Source: a virus. Taken from it: a stretch of 64,000 nucleotides of DNA. The DNA lies in the IMG/VR virus record IMGVR_UViG_3300043451_000043; one strand, written 5' to 3'. This document shows, in pieces, positions 28,187 through 64,000 of the stretch; positions within the stretch are counted from its first letter, which is position 1; each line of letters starts with the position of its first letter. The notes under the pieces were generated by a model. It was not told the origin of the DNA. It searched no databases and worked only from the letters and a program-made list of their open reading frames with translations. Position numbers and translations under genes: made by a program.

Positions 28187-29287
28187 ATGCTGGGCAAATC
28201 AACTTCCAACATGTCGCTTGAAGAACTGCAAAAAGCAGTGATGGGCGCTAACCCCGCCATTGAGCCTTACCAAGCATTGGCTGCCATCGAGAAGATGGTC
28301 AAGGCCGAGAAAGCCAAGACCGCGCAGTTGGCTCAACAGCCGCGCCCTCAAGGTATGGTGGCCCAACGCACAATGGCCGAAGCTGCTGCACTACGTAACC
28401 CCTATATGGCGGCTGGTCTGGGCGCTGCCCCCGTCGCTTCTCCTGTGACCACCCCGATGGGTGAACAGGCTGCCCCTGTTGGTATGGCAGGCGGGGGCAT
28501 GGTTGCGTTCGCCAAAGGCGGTATCACACCCTACGAGTCTGGTTTTGAAGCCTTGTCTGATGATGAGCGCATCGCAGCCTTGCAGAAATACAAAGAAGCT
28601 CTTGGCGCGAACAACGCCGAACTGCTCTCTCCGTTAGAAGCCCAACAAGCCAAGTACGCACAAGAAGCTGAGAAGACCAAGAAGGGTGGTTTGAGTGACG
28701 CACTCCTCGCCGCAGGTCTGGGCATGATGGCTGGCAAATCCCAGTACGCCATGCAGAACATCGGTGAAGGCGGCCTAAAAGGTCTGGCCCAGTACCAAGA
28801 GTCACAGAAGGCCGCGCAAATGGCGCAAGACAAGATGTTGCAGTCTCAAGCCGATATGGCCAAGTCACGCATCGCCCTCGAAAAAGGCGACGAGACAACT
28901 GCTGCCGCACTGCAAAACCAAGCACGCCAAGAAGCACAGGCGGCTGGCCAATTCAAGCTACAAGGTCAATACTACGCTGGCTCCAACGCCGCGCAGATGG
29001 CTGCGGCTCAAAACCGTGGTTTGGCTGGTGGGTACGGCGCGGACAAGCAACGTTTGGCTGAACTCAAACTCATGTTGACCAGCAAGCAAGCAGAACTCAA
29101 AGACAAATCCATGATGCTACCAAAGAACGCCACACGTAAGGCGCAGTTGCAGGGTGAGGTGGACGAGTTGAACAAAGTGATTGCTTCGATGGCTGGGGTC
29201 GGTACAATGGCACCAAGTACCCCCGGCGCAGGCGCTGCTGGCGGTCAGAACGTATATAACTTCAACGACATTACGAAGCCTCAGTAA
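28187..29287 (+). CDS. A/Q-rich internal virion protein candidate
   Basis: 366-aa ORF, helical composition. Confidence 0.45.
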   Translation: MLGKSTSNMSLEELQKAVMGANPAIEPYQALAAIEKMVKAEKAKTAQLAQQPRPQGMVAQRTMAEAAALRNPYMAAGLGAAPVASPVTTPMGEQAAPVGMAGGGMVAFAKGGITPYESGFEALSDDERIAALQKYKEALGANNAELLSPLEAQQAKYAQEAEKTKKGGLSDALLAAGLGMMAGKSQYAMQNIGEGGLKGLAQYQESQKAAQMAQDKMLQSQADMAKSRIALEKGDETTAAALQNQARQEAQAAGQFKLQGQYYAGSNAAQMAAAQNRGLAGGYGADKQRLAELKLMLTSKQAELKDKSMMLPKNATRKAQLQGEVDELNKVIASMAGVGTMAPSTPGAGAAGGQNVYNFNDITKPQ

Positions 29288-29288
29288 C

Positions 29289-32200
29289 ATGGCCTACTCA
29301 ATTCGCCTCCCAGATGGTTCGCTGGTTCAGAACATCCCTGACAACATTCCACCACACGAGGCGAAGGCTCAAATCCTGCAATCCCGACCTGAGTTCGGCG
29401 ACACCAAACGTTCATGGGGCGAAGCTGCCGGTGACATCGGCGCAAGTGCGTTATCTGGTTTGGGCTCGTTGGCCCAGCTCCCCGGCCAAGCCTATGGGCT
29501 GGCCACAGGTGACTTCGATACTGGCATCCTGCAAGGAGCCAAGAAGTTGTCCAAGTTTGGTGAAAGCCTCAAGTCGGAAGGCTTGCAGGCACGCGAAGCA
29601 AAGCGCGACATCAAAGTAGCTGAGGCCGAGAAGAACGGCCAGCTCAGTGCATTCGGCACGTCGTTTGCCGAGACAGTCAAAGACCCCGCACTGTTCACAT
29701 CGTTCCTTGCGGAACAACTCCCACAACTGTTTGTGCCCGGCTCCGCCGCTATGGGTGCTGGCCGCATGGCGTTTGCCAAGGCTGTTGCCTCTGGCGCTGG
29801 TGAGAAAGCTGCTACCGCTGCCGCAGTTGCCGCCGGTACGGCCGCAGCCAAAGGTGCTGGCGCAGTTCAGCAAGGTGCCGATGTTGGCGCTCAAGCCTAC
29901 GAAGACCTCTACAAACGCCTTGTCAAAGACGGCAAGTCCAAAGAAGAAGCCGCAGCCCAAGCTATTGGTTTAGCGCGTGCCACCGGCGCAAGTGCAGCGG
30001 CTATTTCTTGGTTAGCGCAGGGCTTGCCCGGCGCACAGGCACTTGAGAAGGCGCTCGCAGGTGGCGCTACGAAGTCTGGCATTGCCAAGGCGTTTGCCGC
30101 AGGTGCAGCCGGTGAGGGCGTCAGCGAGATGGTCGAAGAAGGTGGTGGTAAGTTCTCGCAGAACTTAGCCATGCGCGACATTGACCCAACCCAAGCCTTG
30201 ATGCAAGGTGTCGGTGCTACTGCGGGTCAAGCGGCCGTTGGCGGTGTTGGTATGGGCGGTGCCGCAGGTGCTATCTCCAGTGGTCGCGGTCGCCCCGATG
30301 TGGCGCAGGTAGCCAAAGCTGCCAACGTACCGGCTAGCGATTTAGAGAAAGCCAATAACGAACGCATCCTTCGCCAGCAACAAGAACAACTGAGCGCCGC
30401 ACAAGGCAAAGAAGCCCGTGCCGGTGAGAAACTTCTCGCAGCAGAAGACGCAGATTTGGCTGCCCAAGCAGCCGCAGACAGCAAGGCACGGGGCGAAGCA
30501 CTCGCTGCTCAAGAAGCAGAACTCCGCGCAAAGCGCGAGGCTGACCTGCAAGCAGCGTTCCCTTCCGACTACCAAGATGTGATGGCTGGTGCCAACGCAT
30601 ACGCCGAACTGTTCAAAGAGAAGCAGTCGCTTGAGGGTGAGCGCAAGACCAAAGAAGTCCGCGCTCGCATCGCGCAGCTCGACGCCCGTATGCTTGAGAT
30701 TACGGAAGCTGACACCCGCGTGGCTTCTGCTGTGGCACAACTGCAAAAAGATCAAGAGAAGCTGGCAAAAGCCGCTGGCTTCCCCGCCAAGAAGTCTGCC
30801 AAGGCTATGGAGAACGCGCCCGCGCAGATGGAAATGCGTGAAGCGTTGGATGTGCCCACCCAACCACAGACCGATTTGTTTGGTAACCCACTACAAGTCG
30901 CGCCTGACGAAGCCACACCGACCGCAGGCGACTTGCTTGACGGCGTGCCCATGACCACGCAGAACCTCGAAGACGCAGGGCTTGGTCCGACACGCAAAGA
31001 GATGGTTGCCGCAGGACAGCGCAATCTGTTCCAACAACGCCAGCCACGCGGCGGGAAAACCTCCACGCCAACACAAGCTGACACCGGTTTAGAACAAGCC
31101 GTCACAACAGAAGAGCAACCAGTTACCGAGCCCAAGAAGGTTGAGAAGCCTGTCGCGCTCACACCTGAGACTGTGCCCACCACCGTCACACCCGACGTGC
31201 TGGGTGCCTTGGGAATTGGCCGCACAGCCACGATTCGCAAAGCCGACCACGGCATCATGGGCAAAGACATCGCCGACCCAGCACAAGCTGGGGAAGTCAA
31301 GTCCATTCTTGAAGCCTACAAAGAAGGCCGTAGTGCCCCCATCCAGCAGAAGATTGATGCCTACCTCGCACGACCAGAGTTCCAAGCCGCCGCGCCTACC
31401 GCGCCGACTACAACGGGAGAAACAAATGCTCGACCAGTTAAGCAAAAAGGACGTGGAGCTAGCGTTCCAGCACCTGTCGAAACCGATACAGGAAGCGCCG
31501 CCCCCGCAGTTGCAGAATCTGAACGAGCTGGAATGGTTCCTGTTGGACAGGATGTTGGCGCAGATACTGGCCGAAAAGCAAAGTCAGCCGCTCCAGTAAA
31601 CATGTTTGAGCAGTTGGTGCAGAAGGAAAAAGCGCCAGAAGAAGGCACTACACCCGACACCACGCTCAAGTCACTCCCCGACGATGTTGAGGCAGAAGTC
31701 CCCGTCCATCTCCGCCCGTGGGGTGGCGTACAGCTATGGCGTCCAGAATCTCAAGGCGCGGAAGCAATGACCGACGTGCAGGCCGCCCTCCAAGAGAAAG
31801 CACGAGCGGGTGATGTACGTGGTGCCTTGCAGGCTATCCTTGACGCGCCAGCAGGTGTGTACAACGAACTCGACAAGCTGGTGGCAAAACGTCTGCTGGC
31901 TGCTAGCTCGCTACCCACGCTGGAAGTTGTGGCCGCCAAAGAAGGTTCACCTGACGGTACGTACGATGCCGTGAACGACCACGTGCAGTTGACTGAAGGT
32001 TCGGTCGGCAGTCACACACTCTTGCATGAGTTGGTCCACGGGTTCGTCCACCGCATGATTGCCCTGCACGAAGGCGGTATCTCCAAGAACCTGCATATCG
32101 GTAACCTGCGCCAGCTCTACGACTTTATCGCCAAGCAACATCCTGAATTGGTGAAGACCTACGGCATGACAAACCTGAGCGAGTTCGCCTCTGAGGTCAT

Positions 32201-35096
32201 GTCAAACAAGGCGTTCCAGAAAGAACTGCAAAAGATTACCTACCGCCGCGAGAACGCTTTCACCGCGTTTGCCAAATCCGTGCTGCGCATCTTGGGCATC
32301 TCCCCCACCGACCAGAACACCGCACTGGGCTCTGCCCTGATCTCGGTTGAAGCTGTCATGGGTGAAGGCCGCCGCCTGCAAGAATCCGCCAAGGGCACGA
32401 ACGTCGAAGGCTCTCTCGACAATATCGCCAACGTGTGGGGTCAGGGCACACTGGATGCCATCCGCCAGATTCAAGATGCTGTCGGCTCCGATACCCCCGA
32501 ACAAGTTGGTGGGGTAATGGAACAAGCGTTGAGCGGTATCAAGCGTGCGCGTGAGAAGACAGGTATCTTGGCGGCGTTCCGCCAAGCCGCCGTGAACAAG
32601 TACGCCACCGTGGAATCCAAGGTTTCGCAGATGTTCTCGCAAGGCGTGCGCGATGCGTTCGGCAACCTGAACCCGATGTTGCTGGTGCGCCAAGCTGACG
32701 ACAGTGCCAAGACCATCATGGACTTCTTCCGCGCTGGTGGTATCCGAATCAACAAAGATGGTTTGGTAGAAACCTTCGACACCGACGCATCCGCAACACA
32801 GGCGCTCAAGGAAATCCAAGCGTTTGCAGAAGCCGAAGGCATGGACTTCGACAAGGCGAAGAAGGACATCTCCACCGTGTTGGAAGGCCACCGCCTGCAC
32901 TCAATCCGCGAGTTCAACAACCAGCTTGAGCAGTCAGCCAAGATACTGGAAGCCCAAGGCAAGAACAAGCAAGCCGATGCAGAGCGTGCCCGCAAGATTC
33001 GTCTGCACATGACGAACCAAGAGATCGACACGCTCGAAGAAATCTACCAATCTACCCCCCGCATCCAGAAGGTGCAGGAAGTGTTCAACGCAACCCGCGG
33101 TCAAGCGATTGACTTGATGGTGGCCAGCGGCCGCATCACCAAAGAGCGCGGTGAAGATTGGAAATCGAACTCTGCCTACGTGCCGTTTGACCGTGTGCTG
33201 GAAGACATTGGCCCCAACCCTATGCCACGTGGCAAGGGCTTGGCCGTACTCGGCAGCGACCCAAAGATCAAAGGCTCGATGGAGAAGCCAATCAAAAACG
33301 CCATCGACTCGTACATGAACACCCTCGGCTGGATGGTCGAAGATGCCATGAAGAACCGCGCTGCGGTCGAGTTGCTGGAAACTATGGCCGGTGTTGGTTA
33401 CGCTGAGAAGCACGCCAAACCTAGCATGGCCAAGAATGAAAATCTCGTGGTGCCCCGCCTATTCCAAAACGGCGAGCCTGTGTACTTCGAGGTGCAGAAC
33501 GAGTTCGATATGGCTGCGTTCCAGCAGGCCCCAGAGATGACCAACTGGCTCATCAAGGGTCTGGCCGCCACCTCACGATTCATGCGCACCAGCGTCACGG
33601 CAATGCCACCATTTGCGGTCAAGCAGGTGCTGGAAGACGCGACCCGTGCTGCCATGTATTCCGGCGTGGAGCGCCCACTTGTTGTGGCAATGAAGACTTT
33701 GTACAACCTGCCCCGCACCTTCTATGGTGAGTGGACCGGCAAGAAGTCTCCTATGGTCAAGCGCATGGAAGAGTTGGGCATCATCGGTGACTTCGACTTC
33801 AACATCTACCAGCCAACCACCGAGATCGAAAAAGAAATCGGCGCAAAGAAACGTGGCACCGCGGGCACGATCTTCCACAGGCTCGAACAGTTCACCAAGG
33901 CATCTGACTTGGCCGCACGCTTGGCTGTGTACGAAGAGACGATGCGCGACACCAACGGCGACGAAGTGCTGGCCCAGACCCGCGCACGCGAACTGATTAA
34001 CTTCAACCGCCGTGGTTCGTCAGGTACCATGAACACGCTGTCCCGCGTGATTCCCTTCTTCAACGCGTACGCCCAAGGCTTGGATGTACTGTACCGTTCA
34101 GCGTCTGGTATCGACTCGACCAGCTCGATCGAACGTGGTGCAGCACGTCGTTTGTTCTGGAGCCGTGTTGGCATGATGACTGCCTTCGGCATGATGTACG
34201 CCTTGGCCATGTCGGGCGACGACGGCTACGAGAACGCAACGGATGACGTGCGTGACAACAACTGGATTCTGCCCGGTGGCTTCAAACTGCCTGTGCCAAA
34301 AGAATTGGGCTTCATCTTCAAGGTCATCCCAGAGCGTGTCGTCGAATACGCCAAGCGTTCTGGTACCCCAGAAGAGCAGAGCGTAGCTGAAGCGGTCACT
34401 GGCGTGCTCAAGTCGGCGCTGTCCACCTACGGTATGCCAAACACTGTGCCGTCCACCATCCGCCCTGTGCTGGAGAACATGACCAACTATTCGTTCTTCT
34501 TGCAGCGTGAGTTGGAATCCACCTCGATGCAGGGTAAGGAGCCCGGCCAGCGTTACACATCCAGCACATCTGAGTTGGCCAAGGCGATCGGTGAAGCCAC
34601 TAACATGTCGCCAATCAAGATCGACAACCTCATCCGCGGCTGGTTCGGTATGGTTGGTTCGACTACCCTGCTGGCTACCGACGCGATGTTGAACCCAACA
34701 CGCCCTGACCGCCCGATCTACCAGATGCCGTTTGCCAGCATCTTCTTGTACGACACGATTGGTGGCCGCGCCAAGAATGAGTTCTACGACGTTCAGAACA
34801 AGGCAGCGCAGGCTGAGAACACCTTCAACGATCTGCTGGAGAAGGACCCTGCCAAGGCTGAGAAATACCTTGAGAAAAACGAGGCTCTGATTAACGCAGC
34901 ACCGGTGCTGAACTCATCTCTCGAAGAGCTGTCCAACTTGCGCCGATTGCGCCTAATGGTGGAGCAGGGTACCGACGAAGAACTCGGCATGGATGGCGCG
35001 GAACGCCGCAAGTTCATCGACGAGATTCGCCAAAACGAAAACGAGTCCCTGCGCTACGTGCGCGAGTTGAAAAAGCAAATCAACGACGCGCAATAA
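29289..35096 (+). CDS. giant virion protein (~1935 aa) with zincin-like HExxH motif
   Basis: ATG at 29289 right after the previous stop. N-terminal ~900 aa A/E/K/Q-rich coiled coil. HELVH at 32025-32039. Last gene of the + block. Confidence 0.55.
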   Translation: MAYSIRLPDGSLVQNIPDNIPPHEAKAQILQSRPEFGDTKRSWGEAAGDIGASALSGLGSLAQLPGQAYGLATGDFDTGILQGAKKLSKFGESLKSEGLQAREAKRDIKVAEAEKNGQLSAFGTSFAETVKDPALFTSFLAEQLPQLFVPGSAAMGAGRMAFAKAVASGAGEKAATAAAVAAGTAAAKGAGAVQQGADVGAQAYEDLYKRLVKDGKSKEEAAAQAIGLARATGASAAAISWLAQGLPGAQALEKALAGGATKSGIAKAFAAGAAGEGVSEMVEEGGGKFSQNLAMRDIDPTQALMQGVGATAGQAAVGGVGMGGAAGAISSGRGRPDVAQVAKAANVPASDLEKANNERILRQQQEQLSAAQGKEARAGEKLLAAEDADLAAQAAADSKARGEALAAQEAELRAKREADLQAAFPSDYQDVMAGANAYAELFKEKQSLEGERKTKEVRARIAQLDARMLEITEADTRVASAVAQLQKDQEKLAKAAGFPAKKSAKAMENAPAQMEMREALDVPTQPQTDLFGNPLQVAPDEATPTAGDLLDGVPMTTQNLEDAGLGPTRKEMVAAGQRNLFQQRQPRGGKTSTPTQADTGLEQAVTTEEQPVTEPKKVEKPVALTPETVPTTVTPDVLGALGIGRTATIRKADHGIMGKDIADPAQAGEVKSILEAYKEGRSAPIQQKIDAYLARPEFQAAAPTAPTTTGETNARPVKQKGRGASVPAPVETDTGSAAPAVAESERAGMVPVGQDVGADTGRKAKSAAPVNMFEQLVQKEKAPEEGTTPDTTLKSLPDDVEAEVPVHLRPWGGVQLWRPESQGAEAMTDVQAALQEKARAGDVRGALQAILDAPAGVYNELDKLVAKRLLAASSLPTLEVVAAKEGSPDGTYDAVNDHVQLTEGSVGSHTLLHELVHGFVHRMIALHEGGISKNLHIGNLRQLYDFIAKQHPELVKTYGMTNLSEFASEVMSNKAFQKELQKITYRRENAFTAFAKSVLRILGISPTDQNTALGSALISVEAVMGEGRRLQESAKGTNVEGSLDNIANVWGQGTLDAIRQIQDAVGSDTPEQVGGVMEQALSGIKRAREKTGILAAFRQAAVNKYATVESKVSQMFSQGVRDAFGNLNPMLLVRQADDSAKTIMDFFRAGGIRINKDGLVETFDTDASATQALKEIQAFAEAEGMDFDKAKKDISTVLEGHRLHSIREFNNQLEQSAKILEAQGKNKQADAERARKIRLHMTNQEIDTLEEIYQSTPRIQKVQEVFNATRGQAIDLMVASGRITKERGEDWKSNSAYVPFDRVLEDIGPNPMPRGKGLAVLGSDPKIKGSMEKPIKNAIDSYMNTLGWMVEDAMKNRAAVELLETMAGVGYAEKHAKPSMAKNENLVVPRLFQNGEPVYFEVQNEFDMAAFQQAPEMTNWLIKGLAATSRFMRTSVTAMPPFAVKQVLEDATRAAMYSGVERPLVVAMKTLYNLPRTFYGEWTGKKSPMVKRMEELGIIGDFDFNIYQPTTEIEKEIGAKKRGTAGTIFHRLEQFTKASDLAARLAVYEETMRDTNGDEVLAQTRARELINFNRRGSSGTMNTLSRVIPFFNAYAQGLDVLYRSASGIDSTSSIERGAARRLFWSRVGMMTAFGMMYALAMSGDDGYENATDDVRDNNWILPGGFKLPVPKELGFIFKVIPERVVEYAKRSGTPEEQSVAEAVTGVLKSALSTYGMPNTVPSTIRPVLENMTNYSFFLQRELESTSMQGKEPGQRYTSSTSELAKAIGEATNMSPIKIDNLIRGWFGMVGSTTLLATDAMLNPTRPDRPIYQMPFASIFLYDTIGGRAKNEFYDVQNKAAQAENTFNDLLEKDPAKAEKYLEKNEALINAAPVLNSSLEELSNLRRLRLMVEQGTDEELGMDGAERRKFIDEIRQNENESLRYVRELKKQINDAQ

Positions 35097-38238: not shown

Positions 38239-38463
38239 TCAGACGCGTTCGATGTATTTCATCAACTTATTCAACGTCGCAGGCTTTGGGTCGAACTCGC
38301 CAGTGAACCAGCCGTATACGGCAACGGTGCTCACACCAGCAACTTCGGCGACCTTACGGACGGGAATGTTTTTCTTAATACACACGCGGCCTAACTTAAC
38401 CCCGATGCGCTTGCCATCAGCGTCTTTGTTCTTCTGAACGATTGATAGGGAATAGCCGATCAT
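38239..38463 (-). CDS. HTH transcriptional regulator
   Basis: 74 aa. VRKVAEVAGVSTVAVYGW is a classic helix-turn-helix. Confidence 0.5.
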   Translation of the reverse strand: MIGYSLSIVQKNKDADGKRIGVKLGRVCIKKNIPVRKVAEVAGVSTVAVYGWFTGEFDPKPATLNKLMKYIERV

Positions 38464-39444: not shown

Positions 39445-39648
39445 TTACTCCTTGGGTTGCAATGTTGCGTGGATGTTGTTGAATTGGGTGATGATGTTGT
39501 GGACCAAGCCTTCGACTTGTTCCATTGGCAGCTTGCGCAGCACACCAACGATGCCCTGCACTTCTTGCGCAGTCAGCACGATCGGGTACATCGGGTTCGC
39601 TGGGGTTGGTTCCTGTGAGGCTTCTGGGGTTTGGACTTCTTCGGTCAT
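39445..39648 (-). CDS. hypothetical protein
   Basis: 67-aa ORF, acidic. Confidence 0.4.
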   Translation of the reverse strand: MTEEVQTPEASQEPTPANPMYPIVLTAQEVQGIVGVLRKLPMEQVEGLVHNIITQFNNIHATLQPKE

Positions 39649-39917
39649 TTGACTTCCTTCATGATGTCGATGTTCATATTGAAATGTTTCGCGAGTTCGC
39701 TGGCAAAGAAGCGGTAGCTCTTGCCGACCCTCACATACGGAATACGCTTTGCTGGGTCTTGCTCCCGAATCAAAGTGTGGATGGTTGACGGGGCGACTTG
39801 CAAAAGCTTCGCCACCTGCGCCAATGTCAGTGCAGTTTCCAATTTAGCTCCTTCGTACTGTAACAGTGTATCGGTTGTCAACGTTAAGTCCCGGGGGCAA
39901 AAGGTCGGGATTTTCAC
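39645..39917 (-). CDS. HTH DNA-binding protein (AlpA/excisionase-like fold)
   Basis: LTLAQVAKLLQVAPSTIHTLIR HTH. The true start may be an internal TTG near 39842, since the ATG version overlaps the upstream gene by 74 nt. Confidence 0.4.
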   Translation of the reverse strand: MKIPTFCPRDLTLTTDTLLQYEGAKLETALTLAQVAKLLQVAPSTIHTLIREQDPAKRIPYVRVGKSYRFFASELAKHFNMNIDIMKEVK

Positions 39918-45972: not shown

Positions 45973-46429
45973 CTAACGCATTGTGGTGCGTACCCCCACG
46001 GACGAACGGGATGTCAGGGCGCAGGGTCTTCAACGTGCGGTAGCAGCGATCGTTCCAAAACTTCCAAGGCTGTTCTCCATGTGTCTTGCGGTACGCGTTA
46101 GACAGGATGACGTTATCGAATGAAGCACCATTGCCCCACACCACGGCGTCGTGTGGTAGCCAGCGCTCAAACCCCGAGAGCACAACCGGCAGGGATACGC
46201 CGCTCTTCTTGAACGCAGCACGGGCTTCATCTGACTGCTGCATCCACCACATCACGGTGCTGACGTCCATCTGTAATCCAAAATCCACGCAGCTCTGTGC
46301 GTCGATGTTCTCGTAGAACTCTCGCCCCAACTCACCCGTCGCGTGGTCAAACTCAACCGCGCCAAGGGCGATGATGACAGAGTTGCTACCGTTACCCAAT
46401 GTTTCTAAATCGACCATTACGTTATTCAT
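45884..46429 (-). CDS. DnaQ-like 3'-5' exonuclease (DEDD)
   Basis: MVDLETLG (Exo I), HD...GNGASFDNVIL (Exo II/III). Start taken at the internal Met MNNVM to avoid overlap. Confidence 0.55.
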   Translation of the reverse strand: MNNVMVDLETLGNGSNSVIIALGAVEFDHATGELGREFYENIDAQSCVDFGLQMDVSTVMWWMQQSDEARAAFKKSGVSLPVVLSGFERWLPHDAVVWGNGASFDNVILSNAYRKTHGEQPWKFWNDRCYRTLKTLRPDIPFVRGGTHHNALDDAKTQAVHAIAILQALEKSNGTDTRSES

Positions 46430-46815
46430 TTTTGTTTTCCTAGTGAGAGCAAGAACAACATGCAGCATGTGGCATGTGCAAGGTGAGACAAGCCTGTCTC
46501 TTTATCAGTGGCTTCGCCTTCGTTGTACTTGATGATGTGGCGGAACGCGGCGGCGAGGTAGCGTGTCTCTGCATGTTCAACATGCTTCCAGTTGTCACGT
46601 GCGTATTTCTTTGCGCCGAACTCTAGCACCTTGACCACTTCGTCCATGCCGTCCCACGGCACGAGTGTGTAGTCGAGCTTGCCGCCGTCAAACTTCATGC
46701 CTTTCTCGGCAGCTTCTGCCATCAGGCTCATCTTATCAGCCAAGGCTTTCATCGCCTCTTCTTCCTCTGGTGTGAACTCAGGGAACATTTCAATTTGTGC
46801 GTTGGTAGGTATCAT
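46426..46815 (-). CDS. dATP/dGTP diphosphohydrolase N-terminal domain-like protein (PF18909-like)
   Basis: DGGKLDYTLVPWDGMDEVVKVLEFGAKKYARDNWKHV...RYLAAAFRHI fits my recollection of that family pattern. Not searchable here. Confidence 0.45.
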   Translation of the reverse strand: MIPTNAQIEMFPEFTPEEEEAMKALADKMSLMAEAAEKGMKFDGGKLDYTLVPWDGMDEVVKVLEFGAKKYARDNWKHVEHAETRYLAAAFRHIIKYNEGEATDKETGLSHLAHATCCMLFLLSLGKQK

Positions 46816-49453: not shown

Positions 49454-49658
49454 ATCTTTCCTCCTTACTCACATAGCTGATTCGCAAGAACAGCGCCCAG
49501 CCAAACAACCCAGTGCTGATAGCGTAGAACATGCGGTCTTCCCGAGCCCACATGAATGGGTCGAAGTTGGCACCTACGATAGCCATAAATGGATACACCA
49601 ATGCCGCCGACACAATGAACGGCGTGACGCACAGCGTCATCTCTTTAAGTTCTTTCAT
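49437..49658 (-). CDS. small membrane protein
   Basis: 73 aa, hydrophobic helices. Confidence 0.4.
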   Translation of the reverse strand: MKELKEMTLCVTPFIVSAALVYPFMAIVGANFDPFMWAREDRMFYAISTGLFGWALFLRISYVSKEERYATTI

Positions 49659-50146
49659 TGTGCCACCTCTTTACCTTTAGGCCAACCCAACTTGCTCAAG
49701 TCAGCCACAACATTTGCAAGGGCTGGTAGTGTGGTGATCGGTTTCTCAATCGTCGGGAAGTAGCTCTTGAACTCGGGCAGTCGGTCGTTGAGTTGTTTGA
49801 TAGTGGTACATGCCATGACAGCAGCTTTGAGCGAGTCACGTGCGTTCTGCCGCGCCTTGTCTTCGTCGTGGTATTTCTGCTTGAGCTGGTCAAGGGTCTT
49901 GGTTTCAACATCCCCGATGACCACATCCCGCGTACCCCAGCTACACCCGTCGTATATCAAATCGCCGAAGTGGTGGGTGCGTAACGCGTGCGGTGCCTTC
50001 TTGTACAGCTTGCGGCACTCAGGTGACATGGCCTTGACGATGGCGGCTTGCAGTTCCTCCCTGCGCTTCTTCTTGTCTGGTACCGGCACATCATTCATGA
50101 TGGCGCGGACGATTGCCTCTTTATCCCATTTGGTGATGCGTGACAT
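49655..50146 (-). CDS. hypothetical protein
   Basis: 163-aa ORF. Confidence 0.4.
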   Translation of the reverse strand: MSRITKWDKEAIVRAIMNDVPVPDKKKRREELQAAIVKAMSPECRKLYKKAPHALRTHHFGDLIYDGCSWGTRDVVIGDVETKTLDQLKQKYHDEDKARQNARDSLKAAVMACTTIKQLNDRLPEFKSYFPTIEKPITTLPALANVVADLSKLGWPKGKEVAQ

Positions 50147-51963: not shown

Positions 51964-52006
51964 TACTCGGTATAGGTAGTCTGGGTGTCGTTGCAATTTC
52001 TTTCCT

Positions 52007-54925: not shown

Positions 54926-55792
54926 TTAGATTTCAAGTTGGAATTTTTCTACGAGGTCATTCATCTTTGTCTTGACTGACTCACGTAGCTCAGGGGACTC
55001 ACGTAGGGATTTGATGTCTACGTTCTCTAATGACAGCTCAAGCTGTCGTCGTGCTTCTTCTAGCTTGGGGTCGTCCAGCACGTTAAGCGATTTCAATGTC
55101 TCGCACAAACGCAGGGCGTTCTCAAGCATGGATGCAAACAACTTCGATGGCTTGCCATCTTCTTTGGGCACCATCTTGTTGCGGATGTGGGTGATCTCTA
55201 GATACAACCTATCCCACGGCTCGATCATGGCATCCTCAAGGCGGTCACGCATGGTCGCTTCGAACTTGTCCTTGAGCTGCTGTGCGGCCTCGGCAGGTAT
55301 GTCTACACGGAAGTCACCAGACTCAGGCACAGGTGTGAAGTGGTAGCGTAGGGCAAACTTCTTATGGAGGTCTGACGCGTCAGGGTACTCTTTCGAATCG
55401 AAAAGTTTTCCCAGCTTGAAAGCCTGTGCTGCTACCTTTGTCGAGTAGTTATTCACAAACCTATCCACAAGCGCGTTGAACTGTTGCTCGTGCTGATTCA
55501 GCTCGTGGCTAATGTCGAAGAACGCTTTGGTTGGTACCAAGCGTGTGCCTGTGTCTGACCACGGCAGAGTCACCTGATACAACCATGTGCGCACCAAGCC
55601 AGCGTACGAATTGATCGCGGCTAGGTCATCGTCCTCAGCAAACAGATTCTTGTGAACCGATGTAGCTGAAGCACGTGCGCCCTTGGCCAAGCTAACCTCG
55701 TTGGCTGTTGCCTTGTCTTGCTTGCGCCCTGTGTACACAGAGATGTTTAAGTCGAGCAGCATCGCACTCGACGAGAGTGATTTATGTTTCAT
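54926..55792 (-). CDS. hypothetical protein (first gene of the MoxR-VWA cluster)
   Basis: 288-aa ORF. Confidence 0.45.
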   Translation of the reverse strand: MKHKSLSSSAMLLDLNISVYTGRKQDKATANEVSLAKGARASATSVHKNLFAEDDDLAAINSYAGLVRTWLYQVTLPWSDTGTRLVPTKAFFDISHELNQHEQQFNALVDRFVNNYSTKVAAQAFKLGKLFDSKEYPDASDLHKKFALRYHFTPVPESGDFRVDIPAEAAQQLKDKFEATMRDRLEDAMIEPWDRLYLEITHIRNKMVPKEDGKPSKLFASMLENALRLCETLKSLNVLDDPKLEEARRQLELSLENVDIKSLRESPELRESVKTKMNDLVEKFQLEI

Positions 55793-55810
55793 GATTTCCT
55801 ACCGGTAGGA

Positions 55811-56272
55811 TTAAGCAGTGCGCAAGATTTCGATCTTGTTCGTGGTCTTGTTGGTGCACACCTTGTGCGAGTCATTGCCGAAGCACTTGGCCGCAGCGTT
55901 GGACACCGTACTGAGCAAGTCGTGCAGATTCACGTCACACATAATCATCTCAGGGGTCAAGCCAATCTCGGCCACATCACCAACCTTGAGGCATTCAACG
56001 TAAGGCAAGACTGCGTTGCGCATCGAACCGTATGGCATTTTCAAAGCGCGGCGTTTGGCTTCTTTTTTGGGGGGCTTGGCGGCCACCAGTTCCAAAGAAC
56101 CCTGCGTGATAGTCGTGCCATCGCTCAAGCGAATGATGTACTCAGTACCAGCCACAGCCAGTAGGCGCAGCGCCTGCTCGATGGTACGTTTGACAATCTC
56201 AGGCGCAGTAGATGCGGCGAGAGTAGGGTTTGTTACTTGGTTCACGGTGCGTGAGTTGTTTGCGTTTGTCAT
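55811..56272 (-). CDS. hypothetical protein
   Basis: 153-aa ORF, RBS GGAGA. Confidence 0.45.
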   Translation of the reverse strand: MTNANNSRTVNQVTNPTLAASTAPEIVKRTIEQALRLLAVAGTEYIIRLSDGTTITQGSLELVAAKPPKKEAKRRALKMPYGSMRNAVLPYVECLKVGDVAEIGLTPEMIMCDVNLHDLLSTVSNAAAKCFGNDSHKVCTNKTTNKIEILRTA

Positions 56273-56341
56273 AGAAGTTTCTCCAGTTAATTTGTTTACA
56301 TGATGAAGTTTACATCATAAAGTTGGTTGTGTCAAGTATGT

Positions 56342-58873: not shown

Positions 58874-59959
58874 TCACTGTGGCATGTGCAAGGTATCGAA
58901 CACAGTACACAACACGCTGTCCATGTCGTGCGTCTCGGCGAGTGCTTGCCAACGCTTGATAGCCTTGGGCGTGATCTTCTTCTTGTCGAGGAACTTCAAC
59001 GCGAACTCAGGGTCTTCGGGGTACACAGACTCAGCGGCCATCCACAACAACTCGTCAGGCCAACCGAACTCTGCGTCAGTCAACGCGTCTTGCAAGATGC
59101 CCGTGCCAAGCATGTCATCGTCATACGAAGAAAGCCACCAGTTCTTCTTGCCGAACGCAGAGCCTTGGTACTTGTCCTCGACCTCACCAGCTTTCCTACT
59201 CGTAGGAAGTTTGTCCCACTTGATGTTGAGCACAGCTTCACTCAATGCAATGAAGTGTTGAATGTCGAGGGACTCGTGTTCGCTATGCTCACGGGCGTAG
59301 CCTACCGATATGTTGGTGCATTCGGGGATGATGTCAACGAACTCGGCTGTGTCGGTATAGACACCGCTGTCGTCAGGCAGATACATCATGCGCTCGTCTG
59401 CGTTCAATGCGTCAGCTAGTGCTTGGCCAAACGCATCAGAGCAACAACGACCCCACCCTTGGTGTGTGATAACGCTGTCGATACCACGGCGGTCAAAGGC
59501 AATGGCTCGGTCGAACTCACCCAGTAGGTCAGCGTGATGCTCGGCGATATGCTTGGCACCGATGCCGCCACATTCCTCACCCTGCGAGAAGATGTAATAG
59601 CCAGCCACGTCATTGTGAATCAGGTGCATGAGCATTGCACAGCCAGCGCCGTCATCTGCGCCGAGTGGTGCGCCATTCGCGTGCCAATGTGTATCGGTCT
59701 TGCGAATCTTGTTAGCACCTACCTCACGATGCACTGTGTCAACGTGTGAGATGAACAAGGTACGGCTGTCACCATCGTGTCGATTGTCTACGTGCAGGTT
59801 GTCGCAGTCATCGAGGAACGCACGTTCAGCGAGATGCACAGGTAACTCTTGCCACAGCCATTGCGTAAAGAAGTCAACGCTAGGTGTATTGTGTGGTCGC
59901 TTCATAGACAGGCCACGAGCGAGAGTTGTATAGAGGATAGAGTGTTTGTTGAATGTCAT
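58874..59959 (-). CDS. M20/M28/M42-type zinc metallopeptidase-like protein
   Basis: ISHVDTVH (HxDTV), GADDGAG (resembles GADDKAG of peptidase T), SQGEECGGIGA (EE-x-G). Confidence 0.45.
   Translation of the reverse strand: MTFNKHSILYTTLARGLSMKRPHNTPSVDFFTQWLWQELPVHLAERAFLDDCDNLHVDNRHDGDSRTLFISHVDTVHREVGANKIRKTDTHWHANGAPLGADDGAGCAMLMHLIHNDVAGYYIFSQGEECGGIGAKHIAEHHADLLGEFDRAIAFDRRGIDSVITHQGWGRCCSDAFGQALADALNADERMMYLPDDSGVYTDTAEFVDIIPECTNISVGYAREHSEHESLDIQHFIALSEAVLNIKWDKLPTSRKAGEVEDKYQGSAFGKKNWWLSSYDDDMLGTGILQDALTDAEFGWPDELLWMAAESVYPEDPEFALKFLDKKKITPKAIKRWQALAETHDMDSVLCTVFDTLHMPQ
59193..59208. repeat. palindrome TTCCTAC-TC-GTAGGAA (intragenic copy)
   Basis: Perfect 7+2+7 inverted repeat inside the M20-like gene. 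Confidence 0.45.
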
Positions 59960-59990
59960 GATAGTTTCCAGTTGCGGTTAAATTAAAAAG

Positions 59991-60005
59991 TCCTACGTGT
60001 AGGAA
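59991..60005. promoter_or_regulatory. palindrome TCCTAC-GT-GTAGGA (operator/promoter-like site, copy 1)
   Basis: Inverted repeat in the 46-bp spacer upstream of the 58874-59959 gene. Confidence 0.5.
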
Positions 60006-61463
60006 TTACTCAGCGGTTTCGCTGGCTTCGTCTTGCTCAGGTGCATCGTCAGGGTGGTATGTCTCACCATCCACAGTCACAGGCTCGACTTCGCTGTATA
60101 GGTAGTAGTCGGATGTGGCGTAGCATTTCCATGCGTCATCCTCATGCGCCCACTCACCATCGTGCAGTTGCACACAGTTCTTGACTAGGCGGTACTCGCT
60201 GTCGTGTTCGCAGTAGCAGACACGATCATCGTCAGTGGCATACCAATCACCGTCAATACACACGGCGTCATCTTCGGCGCACAGGTCACCGTTATCAAGG
60301 CGCACGAGGCTGTTGTCATCGAGATAGTCGGTGTCTACGTATTCATCCCAGCCCTCGACCCACTCAACGTTGTCCTCGTGGATGTAGCGTTGGTAACCGT
60401 GTCGGCTGTACGCATAGCGGTAGTTGTTGTCAACACACGATGAACACACATGGCTGTCCTCGTCTGCGCCAACCCAGTAGCCGTCACCATCATCGAAGCG
60501 GGTGCCACAGTCCTCACATTCCTCGCTGCCAGCTTCCTCAGTCGTGCCGTCAGTTTGGTTGCAGGTGTAGTCACCGCAGTCAGCGATGAACAAACCCACA
60601 GGCTTGCCATCTACGAACTCAATGTCAACCTCTTGGTTGCAGCCATCGAGATACGGTGCGAGGAAATCTTCGGGGTTGCGGCCACGTGATACGTACTTGA
60701 GCTTGGTGCCCCACGCATAGCCACCACAATGTGCATACCCCTGAGCCTTGAGCCATGCGGCCAGCGTCTCGTCAGCGTTGCTATACCCACCATGCGGGTC
60801 TTTCTTGTAGGTGCGGACGAAATACTTGTTGCCATGCTGGTCGGTGTTGCACAGCGCACGACCCACGGTGTCGCCGTCATAGATACGCACAGCCATGTGC
60901 CAGCCCAAGGTTGGGCAATAGGTTTCGTAGGGGTGACGGCCAGCGTCAGCGCCCCACACCATGCACGAGCGTGGGCCTTTGAGCAGGTGGTAGAGCATTT
61001 CCGCTGTGGTGTGTACGAACTTCATGTCGCTGTTGCTATGCAACGCAACCAAGTCACGCAGTGCATGGTCAGGCAGCATGGTGAAGTGCGCACGTAGGTA
61101 CTTGCCGATGGATGTGACTACCTGACGGTCAGCCTCGCCACTACGCTCGTCCCGTGTGTAGGCCAAGCGGGTGGTGTCAGTCGTGGATTCATGCGGCCAT
61201 TGCAAGAGCAACAGTTGCCAATCGTCAGGCCGTGACATACGCAAAGCCTTACGCACGATGGGGTGCAGTGGATAGCGTTCTTGCTCACGTTGGTGCCATG
61301 CACGTGCTGGTCGTGCGATATACGGCTCACCTAATAGGTGGCGCTGTTGGTACTCAGACCACACATATCGGCGGTCTACCCGTGCGGTGCGCAGGATGCG
61401 AGCGGCTTGGTTAAAGATGTTTTCCATATCATCGGCGTTGTAGCCGTGTTCGATGTATTCCAT
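60006..61463 (-). CDS. hypothetical Cys-rich, highly acidic protein
   Basis: 485 aa. C-terminal half D/E/C/Y-rich with multiple CxxC pairs. Confidence 0.45.
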   Translation of the reverse strand: MEYIEHGYNADDMENIFNQAARILRTARVDRRYVWSEYQQRHLLGEPYIARPARAWHQREQERYPLHPIVRKALRMSRPDDWQLLLLQWPHESTTDTTRLAYTRDERSGEADRQVVTSIGKYLRAHFTMLPDHALRDLVALHSNSDMKFVHTTAEMLYHLLKGPRSCMVWGADAGRHPYETYCPTLGWHMAVRIYDGDTVGRALCNTDQHGNKYFVRTYKKDPHGGYSNADETLAAWLKAQGYAHCGGYAWGTKLKYVSRGRNPEDFLAPYLDGCNQEVDIEFVDGKPVGLFIADCGDYTCNQTDGTTEEAGSEECEDCGTRFDDGDGYWVGADEDSHVCSSCVDNNYRYAYSRHGYQRYIHEDNVEWVEGWDEYVDTDYLDDNSLVRLDNGDLCAEDDAVCIDGDWYATDDDRVCYCEHDSEYRLVKNCVQLHDGEWAHEDDAWKCYATSDYYLYSEVEPVTVDGETYHPDDAPEQDEASETAE

Positions 61464-61497
61464 TTGGATTCCCCTTTCAGTTGCGATAAAGATGTTT

Positions 61498-61513
61498 TTC
61501 CTACGGGTAGGAA
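61498..61513. promoter_or_regulatory. palindrome TTCCTAC-GG-GTAGGAA with adjacent ATAAAGATGTTTTT box
   Basis: Perfect inverted repeat 35 bp upstream of the 60006-61463 gene start. Confidence 0.55.
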
Positions 61514-61514
61514 G

Positions 61515-61733
61515 TTAGGTTGTCCCACCCTTATGGGATGAGTTGAGCCCTTTGAGCAGGGCGTGGTCGGTCACCACGATGTAGTTGCTCTTGGGCATTG
61601 GCACGATGGTGTGCTTCTGTGCTTTGGCCAGCTTCTCGCCGCAGGTCATGCAGGTTCGAAAGCCCAGCTTGGCGCGTGCTGGTGGCACACGCTCGGCATA
61701 ACAGCAGGTGCAGATCAGGTTGTGGTAGTGCAT
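61515..61733 (-). CDS. small zinc-finger protein
   Basis: Start at MHYHNL (same 5' UTR as the 60006-61463 gene). ICTCCY...CMTCGEK. Confidence 0.4.
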   Translation of the reverse strand: MHYHNLICTCCYAERVPPARAKLGFRTCMTCGEKLAKAQKHTIVPMPKSNYIVVTDHALLKGLNSSHKGGTT

Positions 61734-62070
61734 TTGGATTCCCTTCAGTTGCGATGGATTCCCCTGCCGTTGGCAGGGTGGTGCGGTATGCACCGCAAGG
61801 CTGTCTCATAACCAGCCTCACGTTGAATACAGTTGTGTATTGTTGTCCGCTGTACTGTCTCATAACCAGTATGCGCTCGGTTTACATTTTGTTTTGTCGC
61901 TTGTATTGCTTTTCTTGATGTGCTGTTACCACACACCAAGGCCGACTGACTACGGCACGCCTTCTCGCTGAACATTGATGGAATGAACCCATGTGCCAGC
62001 TTCTGTATTTACAGCGGCGGTTTTGTTTACCTGATTGGGGTCAGGTGTGTATAAGATGTTTTTAAAGAAC

Positions 62071-62086
62071 TTCCTACGGGTAGGAA
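62071..62086. promoter_or_regulatory. palindrome TTCCTAC-GG-GTAGGAA with adjacent ATAAGATGTTTTT box
   Basis: Identical to the 61498 copy, with the same flanking box. Heads a ~340-nt leader. Confidence 0.55.
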
Positions 62087-62207
62087 ACTTGCCTACACCA
62101 TTCGAGGGCGATACCTCGACTAATTGGGTATATCTTAACACAGTAAAGGTACCTTGTCAAGTTGGGAAGGCCCAGTTTTGGGGGTTTGCGGCCCCACGGG
62201 CCACCAG

Positions 62208-62627
62208 TTATTCGACCCGCTTGATCTCAAGGTAGGCGCGTTTGTTGTATTCGAATCGGTTGGTGATGAAGGCTTTGTCGAAGTTGGTTCGCTGATAGCT
62301 GCAAGCCACGCGCAGGTTGTTGGCATCGACCATGTGCACCACGAGGTATTCGCCCACGGCCATCTTCTTCAGTTTGTACAGTGCCAGCTTGCGGTCAGGC
62401 TCAAAGAATTTGCTGACCATGTTCGAGCGCCGCGCCAGTTGGTTGCGGTCTTCGCGCTCTTGGGCTTGTGCATCGGTCTCACGCTGGCCGCTGTCTTCCA
62501 GCTCACGGTTCTTCTGCATGATCTCGCTGGACTGCAAGGCGCTGGCTCGTACATCATCAGGTATGTCGTGCAGGGTTGCAAATAGGTCGCCGAGGTCGGC
62601 GCTCAGGGGTGTGTGCTTGGTGTCCAT
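62208..62627 (-). CDS. hypothetical early protein
   Basis: 139 aa, RBS AAAGGAAC. Confidence 0.45.
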   Translation of the reverse strand: MDTKHTPLSADLGDLFATLHDIPDDVRASALQSSEIMQKNRELEDSGQRETDAQAQEREDRNQLARRSNMVSKFFEPDRKLALYKLKKMAVGEYLVVHMVDANNLRVACSYQRTNFDKAFITNRFEYNKRAYLEIKRVE

Positions 62628-62874
62628 GCAGGTTCCTTTACATTGTTAAGGGTGAGTGTTGTGGTAGTGTACCAGAAGTCCATTAGTGTTCCTAAACAGT
62701 CTAAGGCGTTCCAGCCATGTTCTCTAAGCGATAGGAACGGTGAAACGATAATAGAGGTGAGTGGATGTTGACGCTGAGTTGCGTTGCCCACAAAAAAGTC
62801 TAACTAAGTCTAATTTCTGCGGGGTGCGTTTGGCGTTTTTTGGGATGGCGCTCTACCAGACGAACGGACGGAAA

Positions 62875-62890
62875 TTCCTACTAGTAGGAA
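62875..62890. promoter_or_regulatory. palindrome TTCCTAC-TA-GTAGGAA
   Basis: Perfect inverted repeat in the right-end noncoding region. Confidence 0.5.
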
Positions 62891-62945
62891 CATTTACATA
62901 GTAAAGATACCAAAAAGCCCAGCGCCATTTTGGAAATGCCAGAAT

Positions 62946-63000
62946 TATTAGAGAGAGAGATAGATATATATATAAATAGTAGTAGTAGTAGAAGAAAAAG
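62946..63000. repeat. microsatellite-like low-complexity tract (GA)5-(TA)n-(TAG)5-A-rich
   Basis: agagagagagatagatatatatataaatagtagtagtagtagaagaaaaag. Confidence 0.7.
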
Positions 63001-63029
63001 CCCCTGCCAAACATTGCCAACTAATGCAA

Positions 63030-63135
63030 AACATGATTAAACATGATGTTCCGATATACCACTTGGAACGCGTGGGTACAAATTAGACAAATTAGGAACG
63101 CGTAGTTGCGTTGGAACGGCCTAGTTGCATAGGTG
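63030..63135. repeat. iteron-like direct repeats
   Basis: AAACATGAT x2, ACAAATTAG x2, GGAACGCGT x2 plus GGAACGG, TAGTTGC x2. Confidence 0.5.
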
Positions 63136-63220
63136 CATCGGAGCCAAGAAGCCACCAGTTACCAGTTCCCTGAAAGATGGGCGCAAAAAAGCCCGCAGGG
63201 CGTAAACCATGCGGGCAATA

Positions 63221-63251
63221 AAAAACCCCGCTTGCGCGGGGTCTGTGGTTT
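63221..63251 (-). terminator. rho-independent terminator
   Basis: CCCCGC-TTGC-GCGGGG stem with A-run on the + side and T-run on the - strand, directly downstream of the stop of 63269-63736. Confidence 0.6.
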
Positions 63252-63268
63252 TTCCTACGCGGTAGGAA
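63252..63268. promoter_or_regulatory. palindrome TTCCTAC-GCG-GTAGGAA
   Basis: Between the stop codon and the terminator of the 63269-63736 gene. Confidence 0.5.
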
Positions 63269-63736
63269 TTATTCCGAAATTTCGTACCCGTTCGCCGTCA
63301 AATAATCGGCGATGCAACCTGCCAAAGTGTCGGCCTTTGCGTCATCGTATGCGCTTTGAATTTCGGCGGCGAATGTTGCGAAGCCATCGGCACTAAACAT
63401 TTTTGCAACAAACGCGGCGAATTCGGGCGCGGCCTTTTCTTTGCCTTTGCCTTTGGCGCTACCTTTGGATGCACTGAAAGAAAATGGCACATCATCGTTC
63501 ACGGCGGCGACAAACGCCGTCACATAATTGGCGTAAGTCTTGGCCGTTTTGCCTTTGAACGCGGCGGCCATTGCATCCATCAAGGCCATGCGATTCGAAC
63601 AAGTGGCCTTTGACTTTCCAAACTTAACGCCCGCTTTGCGAAGCTCGGCAACCTTTGTTGCGATTATTTCCAAAGCGTTAGCGCCCGCGTGAATGGCGAT
63701 GGCGGCTGACTTGATGGTGTCGATAGAGTTTGTCAT
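63269..63736 (-). CDS. hypothetical early protein (A/K-rich)
   Basis: Start at MTNSIDT with RBS AAAGGGGAA. 156 aa. Confidence 0.45.
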   Translation of the reverse strand: MTNSIDTIKSAAIAIHAGANALEIIATKVAELRKAGVKFGKSKATCSNRMALMDAMAAAFKGKTAKTYANYVTAFVAAVNDDVPFSFSASKGSAKGKGKEKAAPEFAAFVAKMFSADGFATFAAEIQSAYDDAKADTLAGCIADYLTANGYEISE

Positions 63737-63855
63737 AAGATGTTTCCCCTTTGGTATCGGTGGCATGAGTTGCCATACCTTGAACCGATGACTCTATTGT
63801 GCCTAAGTTTAATGCGTTTGTCAAGCGTTATCTATCGCGTGATGTTGTTTCGTGT

Positions 63856-63871
63856 TTCCTACCCGTAGGAA
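63856..63871. promoter_or_regulatory. palindrome TTCCTAC-CC-GTAGGAA
   Basis: About 120 bp upstream of the 63736 start. A TTGACA hexamer (on the - strand) lies ~35 bp further toward the gene. Confidence 0.5.
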
Positions 63872-64000
63872 AAAGTGACCAGTTCCCCGCGACCCCACCG
63901 CACCCCCACCATCCCGCTGGGGATTGGGACTCCGCCACTTCCCTTACATTGTGTTACACACGAACGATGACCAGACAAAACCAAATTGGGCGCCCAGCCC

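Follow-up and report, generated by a model that had tools for sequence, protein, structure and literature searches.

In this study, we analysed a stretch of 64,000 nucleotides of viral DNA from the IMG/VR record IMGVR_UViG_3300043451_000043 (hereafter the window) with respect to a short palindrome, TTCCTAC-N2/3-GTAGGAA, which recurs through the early genes at one end of this sequence. In related phages the same places are occupied by other perfect palindromes, and each lineage has its own version.

Palindromes in the early region of the window

The original prediction had counted seven perfect copies of the palindrome at the early end. Six exact matches were found in the whole window, starting at 59193, 61498, 62071, 62875, 63252 and 63856, compared to none in 100 dinucleotide-preserving shuffles, which agrees with the claim that the number is far above chance. 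When a 6-bp core or one mismatch was allowed, two more copies were obtained, giving a total of eight. The supposed seventh perfect copy is in fact GTCCTAC-GT-GTAGGAA at 59990-60005, and a copy at 55796-55811 had been missed. In both, the single mismatch affects the outermost pair, and the copy at 59990 keeps perfect 6-bp arms. All eight copies lie within 55.8-63.9 kb. As had also been stated, the late block is free of them: a scan of the whole window with up to three mismatches found none in the + strand late/structural block, and in the - strand genes between 35 and 55 kb only one at 52002, which has three mismatches and corresponds to chance level. Within the genome the arms are identical and only the centre varies, i.e. 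the palindrome is dyad-symmetric with conserved half-sites and a free centre, as expected for an operator.

All genes of the palindrome region run on the - strand, on which promoters and terminators were predicted by a scan. The outermost copy, pal0 (TTCCTAC-CC-GTAGGAA, 63856..63871), is situated 32 nt upstream of the -35 hexamer of the sigma70-like promoter P1 (TTGACA-17-CACAAT, 63796..63824, - strand) and outside of the P1 transcript. P1 drives gene 1 (63269..63736, - strand), the first early gene, which codes for 155 aa from the ATG at 63736 and displays a basic N-terminal domain, a Lys/Gly linker and a swappable C-terminal domain. The next copy, palB (TTCCTAC-GCG-GTAGGAA, 63252..63268), starts 1 nt past the gene 1 stop codon and approximately 7 nt ahead of two tandem intrinsic terminators (63185..63244, - strand). 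The first of them, T1, came from the scan (63244-63223, with a stem at ~63226-63241 and a T-run at 63220-63225), while T2 was read from the sequence (stem ~63191-63216, T-run 63185-63190). The terminators are followed by approximately 290 nt of non-coding DNA before palC (TTCCTAC-TA-GTAGGAA, 62875..62890) is reached, which belongs to a 550-nt non-coding stretch extending from the terminators to the gene at 62208-62627.

A second sigma70-like promoter, P2 (TTGACA-17-TAAGAT with TG, 62132..62160, - strand), precedes palD (TTCCTAC-GG-GTAGGAA, 62071..62086), which begins at about +39 from the predicted P2 start. Directly 3' of palD is the motif GTTCTTTAAAAACA (62057..62070, - strand), which we take to be boxA-like, and an untranslated leader of approximately 330 nt extends from palD to a Zn-ribbon gene (61515-61733, - strand). 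One nt past the stop codon of the latter and 34 nt ahead of the ATG of a gene for a 485-aa protein lies palE (TTCCTAC-GG-GTAGGAA, 61498..61513), whereas palF, the copy at 59990..60005, abuts the stop codon of the 485-aa gene and is located 30 nt ahead of the ATG of a peptidase gene (58874-59959). The peptidase gene itself contains an exact copy (59193..59208), which is found in the same codons in the relatives L122 and L036, while L120 has none at that place. Eight small genes separate the peptidase gene from the third sigma70-like promoter of the scan, P3 (TTGACA-17-TAAACT, 56307..56335, - strand), followed by the gene 55811-56272. Between this gene and a DUF3150 gene is palG (TTCCTAC-CG-GTAGGAT, 55796..55811), 3 nt ahead of the DUF3150 ATG at 55792, and its AGGAA is also the Shine-Dalgarno sequence of that gene. 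P1, P2 and P3 are all near-consensus sigma70-type promoters with a perfect TTGACA.

Hence, three copies (61498, 59990 and 55796) are directly in front of a gene, and not five as had been proposed; the others are located next to a promoter, ahead of terminators, in long non-coding stretches (62875 and 62071) or inside the peptidase gene. Most of the copies are transcribed and three of the eight have a promoter nearby. The original prediction had overlooked four features: that the copies have a fixed arrangement relative to sigma70-like promoters and terminators, that most of them are transcribed, that the spacer is strand-biased and that the palindrome switches throughout the family.

Lineage-specific palindromes in related phages

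To place the window among other phages, IMG/VR was scanned for the exact TTCCTAC pattern, and 80 terminase-anchored loci were then fetched and analysed for repeated upstream palindromes. The scan returned many contigs with 3-7 copies, which represent relatives of the window phage: their terminase and portal genes are 70-78% identical at the DNA level, and the palindrome cluster is situated immediately upstream of the terminase genes. Every lineage was found to possess a perfect palindrome of its own, present in 4-10 copies in the same early region, and at least 20 different forms exist. The terminase-anchored loci yielded TTCCTAC-N2/3, GTCATAC-N2, CTCATAC-N2, CCTTACA-N1/2, GTTATAC-N3, GTTAGGC-N3, GTTAGTCA-N1, GTTAGGGA-N2, TAGTCA-N2, GTAGTC(G), TGTCAACA-N1/2, TTATCGG-N2, TTATGC/TTATGGA, CTGTAA-N2, (T)ACGTAA / TAGTAA and TTTCCTAC-N1, and other anchors added TTAACA-N2, TTAGGTA-N1, TCGGGAC-N1 and TCCCTAC-N2. 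Counting in relatives, which the original prediction had suggested, thus revealed the same confinement as in the window: in 20 lineages, 131 copies occur in 160 kb upstream of the terminase (early), while none occurs in 165 kb downstream (late). As a control, 42 primase-anchored loci were inspected, in which no palindrome with three or more copies was found; exonuclease-anchored loci matched unrelated phages.

The most instructive case is L120, the closest relative of the window (90% identity in TerL, 85% in DUF3150 and 71% in the peptidase). Here, GTCA(T/G)AC-N2/3-GTATGAC is found at the places homologous to pal0, palB, palC, palD, palE, palF and palG. A scan for GTCATAC-NN-GTATGAC identified only one contig of this phage family with several copies. 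Such a switch in place rules out chance, makes a conserved host regulator unlikely and calls for a trans-acting reader that co-evolves with its sites. The comparison of these sequences supports the conclusion that the palindromes are sequence-specific recognition sites and not generic hairpins. The switching takes place in a hyperplastic early region, in which few genes are common even to close relatives and are bracketed by the palindromes.

Outside of the metagenomic contigs, a search for near DNA matches found no close relative among sequenced phages. The closest cultured relatives are HTVC023P-type pelagiphages, which show 46% identity in TerL and differ in genome layout; published papers on these phages do not mention such repeats.

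Placement of the sites across lineages

The positions of the palindromes follow a few rules that are common to the lineages. In at least 22 of 33 lineages, a sigma70-like promoter follows the first palindrome at a distance of 3-90 nt, most commonly 10-17 nt or 31-38 nt, which places the centre of the site at roughly -50 to -80. In these at least 22 lineages, no promoter-like site on the early strand was found within ~200 nt upstream of the first palindrome; three lineages show a weak 9/12 promoter match 237-383 nt upstream of it. In most lineages the next copy is located 0-4 nt past the stop codon of the first gene and ahead of one or two intrinsic terminators.

At strong internal promoters, the palindrome starts at +29 to +50, which was found in 29 cases and in almost all lineages. 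The leaders between these promoters and the palindromes are homologous and share a 5' hairpin with a covarying stem, in which the loop GGGAAWTCG is kept (window 62102-62119, - strand, with equivalents in L120, L066, L193, L160, L179 and others). This covariation suggests that the hairpin is a conserved 5' leader element of P2-type transcripts. Since the leaders are homologous, the tight spacing of +29 to +50 may partly reflect common descent of a promoter-leader-palindrome module. Furthermore, a motif GTTCTTTAA(AAA)CA, which we likewise take to be boxA-like, occurs in ten lineages of the clade to which the window belongs, 2-23 nt past the P2-proximal palindrome, whereas distant lineages lack it.

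The remaining copies are intercistronic. Among them, 43 sit 0-9 nt past a stop codon, and many are located 12-35 nt ahead of a Shine-Dalgarno sequence and ATG. In L187, L164, L168 and L181, the palindrome typical of the respective lineage is placed a few codons inside the 5' end of the DUF3150 gene. Leaders of the type aaCTTTAACTTAAGAAAC...ATG follow palindromes in L118 (~11002), L122 (~4191) and the window (59960-59989); we take them to resemble the translational enhancer of T7 gene 10.

Several other features of the non-coding DNA around the palindromes should be mentioned. The stretch 62628-63180 contains a low-complexity tract of AGAGAG/(TA)n/(AGT)n at 62940-63000, three GCGTTCC(A/T)A repeats at ~63060-63125 and orphan half-sites TTCCTA/TAGGAA at 62689, 62732 and 63093, and may serve as an origin or have an additional role in regulation. 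The leader of ~330 nt between palD and the Zn-ribbon gene includes a 15-nt direct repeat, ctgtctcataaccag, at ~61803-61817 and ~61856-61870, and may encode a small RNA. Adjacent to the first palindrome on its upstream side, at 63872-63920 with the - strand as sense strand, there is a G-rich tract (GGGGTGCGGTGGGG and similar), which is conserved across the family and sits between the divergent early and terminase gene blocks. It could mark a genome end or a packaging region.

Recognition at the level of DNA or RNA

Our tentative interpretation, in which confidence still falls slightly behind doubt, regards the palindromes as the operator set of a co-evolving, phage-encoded and sequence-specific regulator of early transcription that acts mainly on double-stranded DNA. 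They would be the cis-acting sites of one regulon over the early transcription units of this phage family, and one sequence-specific factor would read all copies of a genome. Its specificity would evolve with the phage, and the factor would therefore be phage-encoded. Most likely it would be a dimer which binds two half-sites of 6-7 bp in double-stranded DNA. The sites upstream of the strongest early promoter, between gene 1 and the tandem terminators, ~35-50 bp into the transcripts of internal promoters and between the other cistrons would then allow two kinds of action: at P1, the occupied site could modulate host RNA polymerase, and further downstream occupied sites could block or modify the elongating polymerase on its way through the early operons, which would lead to early shut-off or to read-through control. 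The sites themselves, their restriction to the early region, their covariation between lineages, their fixed placement and the lack of a detectable phage RNA polymerase are observed, whereas we infer that the factor binds DNA, in which direction it acts and which protein it is.

Several observations are consistent with such a DNA-binding factor. The layout of 7+2/3+7 with conserved arms and a free centre is that of classical helix-turn-helix operators. Of 183 sites compared across lineages, 142 have perfect symmetry, and G:U accounts for only 7 of the 45 mismatched pairs, which is about chance. Most mismatches are found at either end of an arm (outermost or innermost position), and in L120 an identical G.A mismatch in the middle of the stem is tolerated at two sites. 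This pattern points to recognition of half-sites rather than to pairing in a hairpin. Together with the identical arms, the variable centre and the restriction to the early region, it upholds the earlier suggestion of sites for sequence-specific binding. Moreover, pal0 is conserved upstream of P1 and has no nearby upstream promoter, so it has to act as DNA.

Sets of operators in many copies are well known and represent the closest functional analogues. The CIRs of phage phiC31 and the stoperators of mycobacteriophage L5 are distributed through the early region of temperate phages and are bound by the immunity repressor, one phage protein which silences transcription via these sites, partly by blocking elongation. 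As in the window phage, short sites in many copies are intergenic in early operons, some near promoters and some just past stop codons. However, stoperators are asymmetric, whereas the sites described here have a strand bias in the spacer and switch between close relatives, and no repressor or integrase was recognised in the window phage. The IncP plasmid system KorB/KorA provides a similar example of a mobile element with many palindromic operators: approximately a dozen copies of one palindromic operator at varied promoter distances form a global regulon. But this is a plasmid system with a ParB-family protein, and none of the proteins scanned here was ParB-like.

Not all observations fit a simple symmetric operator, and the following ones count against it. 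Within the TTCCTAC family, 46 of 62 sites begin their spacer with C when read on the sense strand, but only 18 of 62 have the corresponding G at the mirror position. Spacers rich in C/A are more frequent than their complements by 35:7 (p = 8e-6) at even flank composition, a value in which independence is overstated because the sites are partly homologous. The bias points the same way but is weaker in other lineages (40:20), and L171 has C in all six single-base spacers. The simple symmetric operator model does not predict such a strand bias, since a dimer operator would be strand-symmetric. It would also have a fixed distance between the half-sites, whereas the spacer length varies by one base within genomes.

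The main alternative is recognition in the nascent mRNA, where the hairpin would be bound by a phage RNA-binding protein (an N-like antiterminator, a translational repressor or a processing nuclease) and would control whether the terminators after gene 1 are read through, or what becomes of the individual cistrons. We regard this as possible, though rather unlikely. The original prediction had dismissed an RNA hairpin as too tight. This objection is weak, because ViennaRNA folds every copy in the window into a stem of 5-7 bp with a loop of 3-4 nt. With -3.8 to -7.1 kcal/mol, and several copies no better than shuffles, the predicted RNA hairpin is possible but marginal. With regard to layout, lambda nutL and nutR offer the closest match. 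In lambda, the site is found in the leader of one operon (PL-nutL) and after the first gene, ahead of the first terminator, of the other (PR-cro-nutR-tR1), which is paralleled here by the palindromes at +29 to +50 of internal promoters in the 29 cases mentioned and by those between the first gene and the tandem terminators in most lineages. A location in transcribed leader RNA ahead of terminators applies to palB, palD and the majority of copies but not to pal0. In lambda, the hairpin differs between lineages and evolves jointly with a small early protein that changes rapidly, which may also be the case here, and the motif taken to be boxA-like lies beside one copy of the window. The strand-specific bias of the spacer, its free length, as a loop would have, and the copies 12-35 nt ahead of Shine-Dalgarno and ATG also speak for an RNA site.

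Nevertheless, there are important differences from nut sites. The window has eight copies instead of two, and one conserved copy, pal0, remains untranscribed upstream of its promoter. Here, the stems are invariant within a genome and the loops vary, while known hairpin-binding proteins display the reverse of this combination of a conserved stem with a free loop. The mismatches without G:U bias and the tolerated mid-stem G.A also speak against an RNA site, and the hairpins are weak. By contrast, the stem of the 5' leader hairpin covaries like a structural RNA. Of the eight copies, only one has the boxA-like motif beside it, and this in a single clade; Rfam gave no match for the leader/palindrome region, and a protein resembling N was not recognised. 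The palindromes also do not represent intrinsic terminators, which we rejected on the basis of their weak stems and the missing U-run at most copies; a T-run exists only at the 59990 copy, and the true terminators are found beside palB.

On balance, we give somewhat more weight to recognition of duplex DNA than to recognition of RNA because of pal0 and of the pattern of invariant stems and free loops, but the latter is a serious competitor. A factor that reads the palindromes as DNA and acts, like Q, on the transcribing polymerase would reconcile much of both interpretations.

The palindromes could also be boundary repeats of gene cassettes, comparable to PeSLs or to integron attC sites, which would serve as recombination points for the shuffling of ORFan early genes and have regulation as a secondary role. 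This idea appears improbable, although the early region is hyperplastic, the palindromes bracket its genes and some copies are accompanied by near-consensus sigma70 promoters. A literature search for a described equivalent returned only papers on PeSLs, which are found in T4-type phages as repeated and recombining cassettes of near-consensus sigma70 early promoters and stem-loops between ORFan early genes (PMC2839356, PMC4122927). The setting in a hyperplastic early region and the combination of a sigma70 promoter with a stem-loop are similar, but the stem-loops of PeSLs act as terminators, are rich in G/C and only loosely conserved in sequence, and are placed inside or next to the promoter; the fused promoter and terminator share ~100 bp. 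In the window, three of eight copies are near a promoter, the stem-loop starts at ~+39 and only 14-16 bp are common, while the flanks differ. Generally, the palindromes of this family have exact, lineage-specific arms with weak pairing and A/T-rich flanks, and they are located at +29 to +50 or stand alone. Moreover, the 2-3 nt of the centre differ between copies, hence gene conversion cannot explain the identical arms, and homologous exchange does not need a perfect dyad symmetry. An integrase or HUH transposase was not found among the proteins scanned, a scan that was not exhaustive.

A co-opted host regulator, which the original prediction had considered, is very improbable. The size of the palindrome fits many bacterial transcription factors and no phage factor has been identified so far, but a host protein is hardly compatible with at least 20 forms in one phage family, which differ even between near-identical phages such as the window phage and L120 with GTCATAC at homologous sites.

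Finally, we considered promoters of the N4 type. No phage RNA polymerase was found when the 1971-aa and 821-aa open reading frames were searched with PHROGs, Pfam, PDB sequences and motif patterns. The 1971-aa product (29181-35096, + strand) is a polyvalent virion protein with an HExxH motif and a C-terminal LPD38 domain, whose N-terminal region resembles DarB-like proteins and the non-catalytic N-terminus of the N4 virion RNA polymerase; the match to the profile of the latter covers only positions 189-646 outside of the polymerase domain, and neither RNA polymerase motifs nor a PDB match were detected. The 821-aa open reading frame gave no match. That the palindromes are extruded DNA hairpins read by an unrecognised, possibly virion-borne phage RNA polymerase is therefore largely refuted and the least probable of these explanations: short, phage-specific inverted repeats clustered at the early genome end, short leaders to Shine-Dalgarno and ATG, a G-biased loop on the template strand and the similarity of the virion protein recall N4, but that similarity lies outside the polymerase domain, near-consensus promoters of the host type drive the region, one copy is found just ahead of terminators and several inside coding sequence, the loop is not conserved and a perfect palindrome has no polarity.

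Candidate proteins for reading the palindromes

Most early proteins of the window have no family match. Judged from sequence comparison, the basic N-terminal domain of gene 1 is our best lead for the palindrome-binding factor. Gene 1 is always the first gene, it is transcribed from the strongest promoter and it is bracketed by pal0 and palB. The N-terminal domain has an isoelectric point of 9-9.8 and shows 47-64% identity to that of the window in seven other TTCCTAC lineages compared, and its conserved motifs are kept in three further, independently fetched TCCTAC lineages. In L120, the identity is only 34%, despite the fact that this is the closest genome. The C-terminal domain swaps independently of the palindrome type. 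In a second gene 1 family, positions 96-97 are Ser-Arg in three GTTAGGC lineages, but Lys-Lys and Ala-Lys in the GTTAGTC and GTTATAC lineages, respectively. Against gene 1 as the reader, L193 and L140 have GTTATAC in common while their gene 1 products are only 25% identical, i.e. the overall similarity does not track the site. The predicted structure of the gene 1 product is helical, no DNA-binding fold was detected in it, and Pfam returned only noise.

The two helix-turn-helix proteins named in the original prediction were compared as well. HTH_3 (38239-38463) is the second candidate. It is a core gene, which is also present in TTAACA, TTAGGTA and TCGGGAC lineages at 40-54% identity, but its putative recognition helix varies even among TTCCTAC lineages (STVA, TKIT, TTVA, STVC). 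For HTH_17 (39645-39917), no contig connects the protein with a different palindrome. The Zn-ribbon protein was rejected as reader. Although universal in the family, it hardly changes between lineages whose palindromes differ; for instance, L391 with GTTAGGC has a protein 73% identical to that of the window. It also exists in unrelated phages without repeated palindromes.

More speculatively, the gene 1 product may load at the palindromes as an abundant immediate-early protein of undescribed fold, in which the N-terminal domain would read the site and the C-terminal domain would engage host RNA polymerase. In the manner of N or Q, the family would possess a switch for read-through or shut-off, and the address code of this switch would have been rewritten at least 20 times. 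In this complete form, the proposal is unlikely, with its chances a little below those of recognition in the nascent mRNA.

Other genes of the window phage and its relatives

Two further observations concern genes outside of the palindrome region. The - strand genes at 46426-46815 and 49655-50146 code for a dATP/dGTP diphosphohydrolase N-terminal domain and an Nmad5 nucleotide-modification domain, respectively, and the window phage may modify its DNA bases. In L122 (9325-9363), the small-terminase gene starts 6 nt past a promoter-like site TTAACT-18-TATAGT, which suggests a late transcript that is leaderless or has a very short leader.

Implications for the phage family

With these results, the early region of an abundant family of uncultured phages obtains a regulatory map that can be put to the test; the family uses host RNA polymerase, and almost all of its early genes are without known function. 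Compared to the systems discussed above, the unusual features are the at least 20 lineage-specific versions at homologous sites, the stereotyped position relative to promoters and terminators of the host type and the strand-biased centre. The signature of an own palindrome that is restricted to the early end is, moreover, a simple marker of early regions and of genome orientation in metagenomic phage contigs. The switching of palindromes at homologous sites represents an unusually clean natural experiment in the co-evolution of sites and their reader. Once this reader is found, at least 20 orthogonal pairs of site and protein would be available, and if gene 1 proves to be the reader, the family would hold a natural library of matched pairs.

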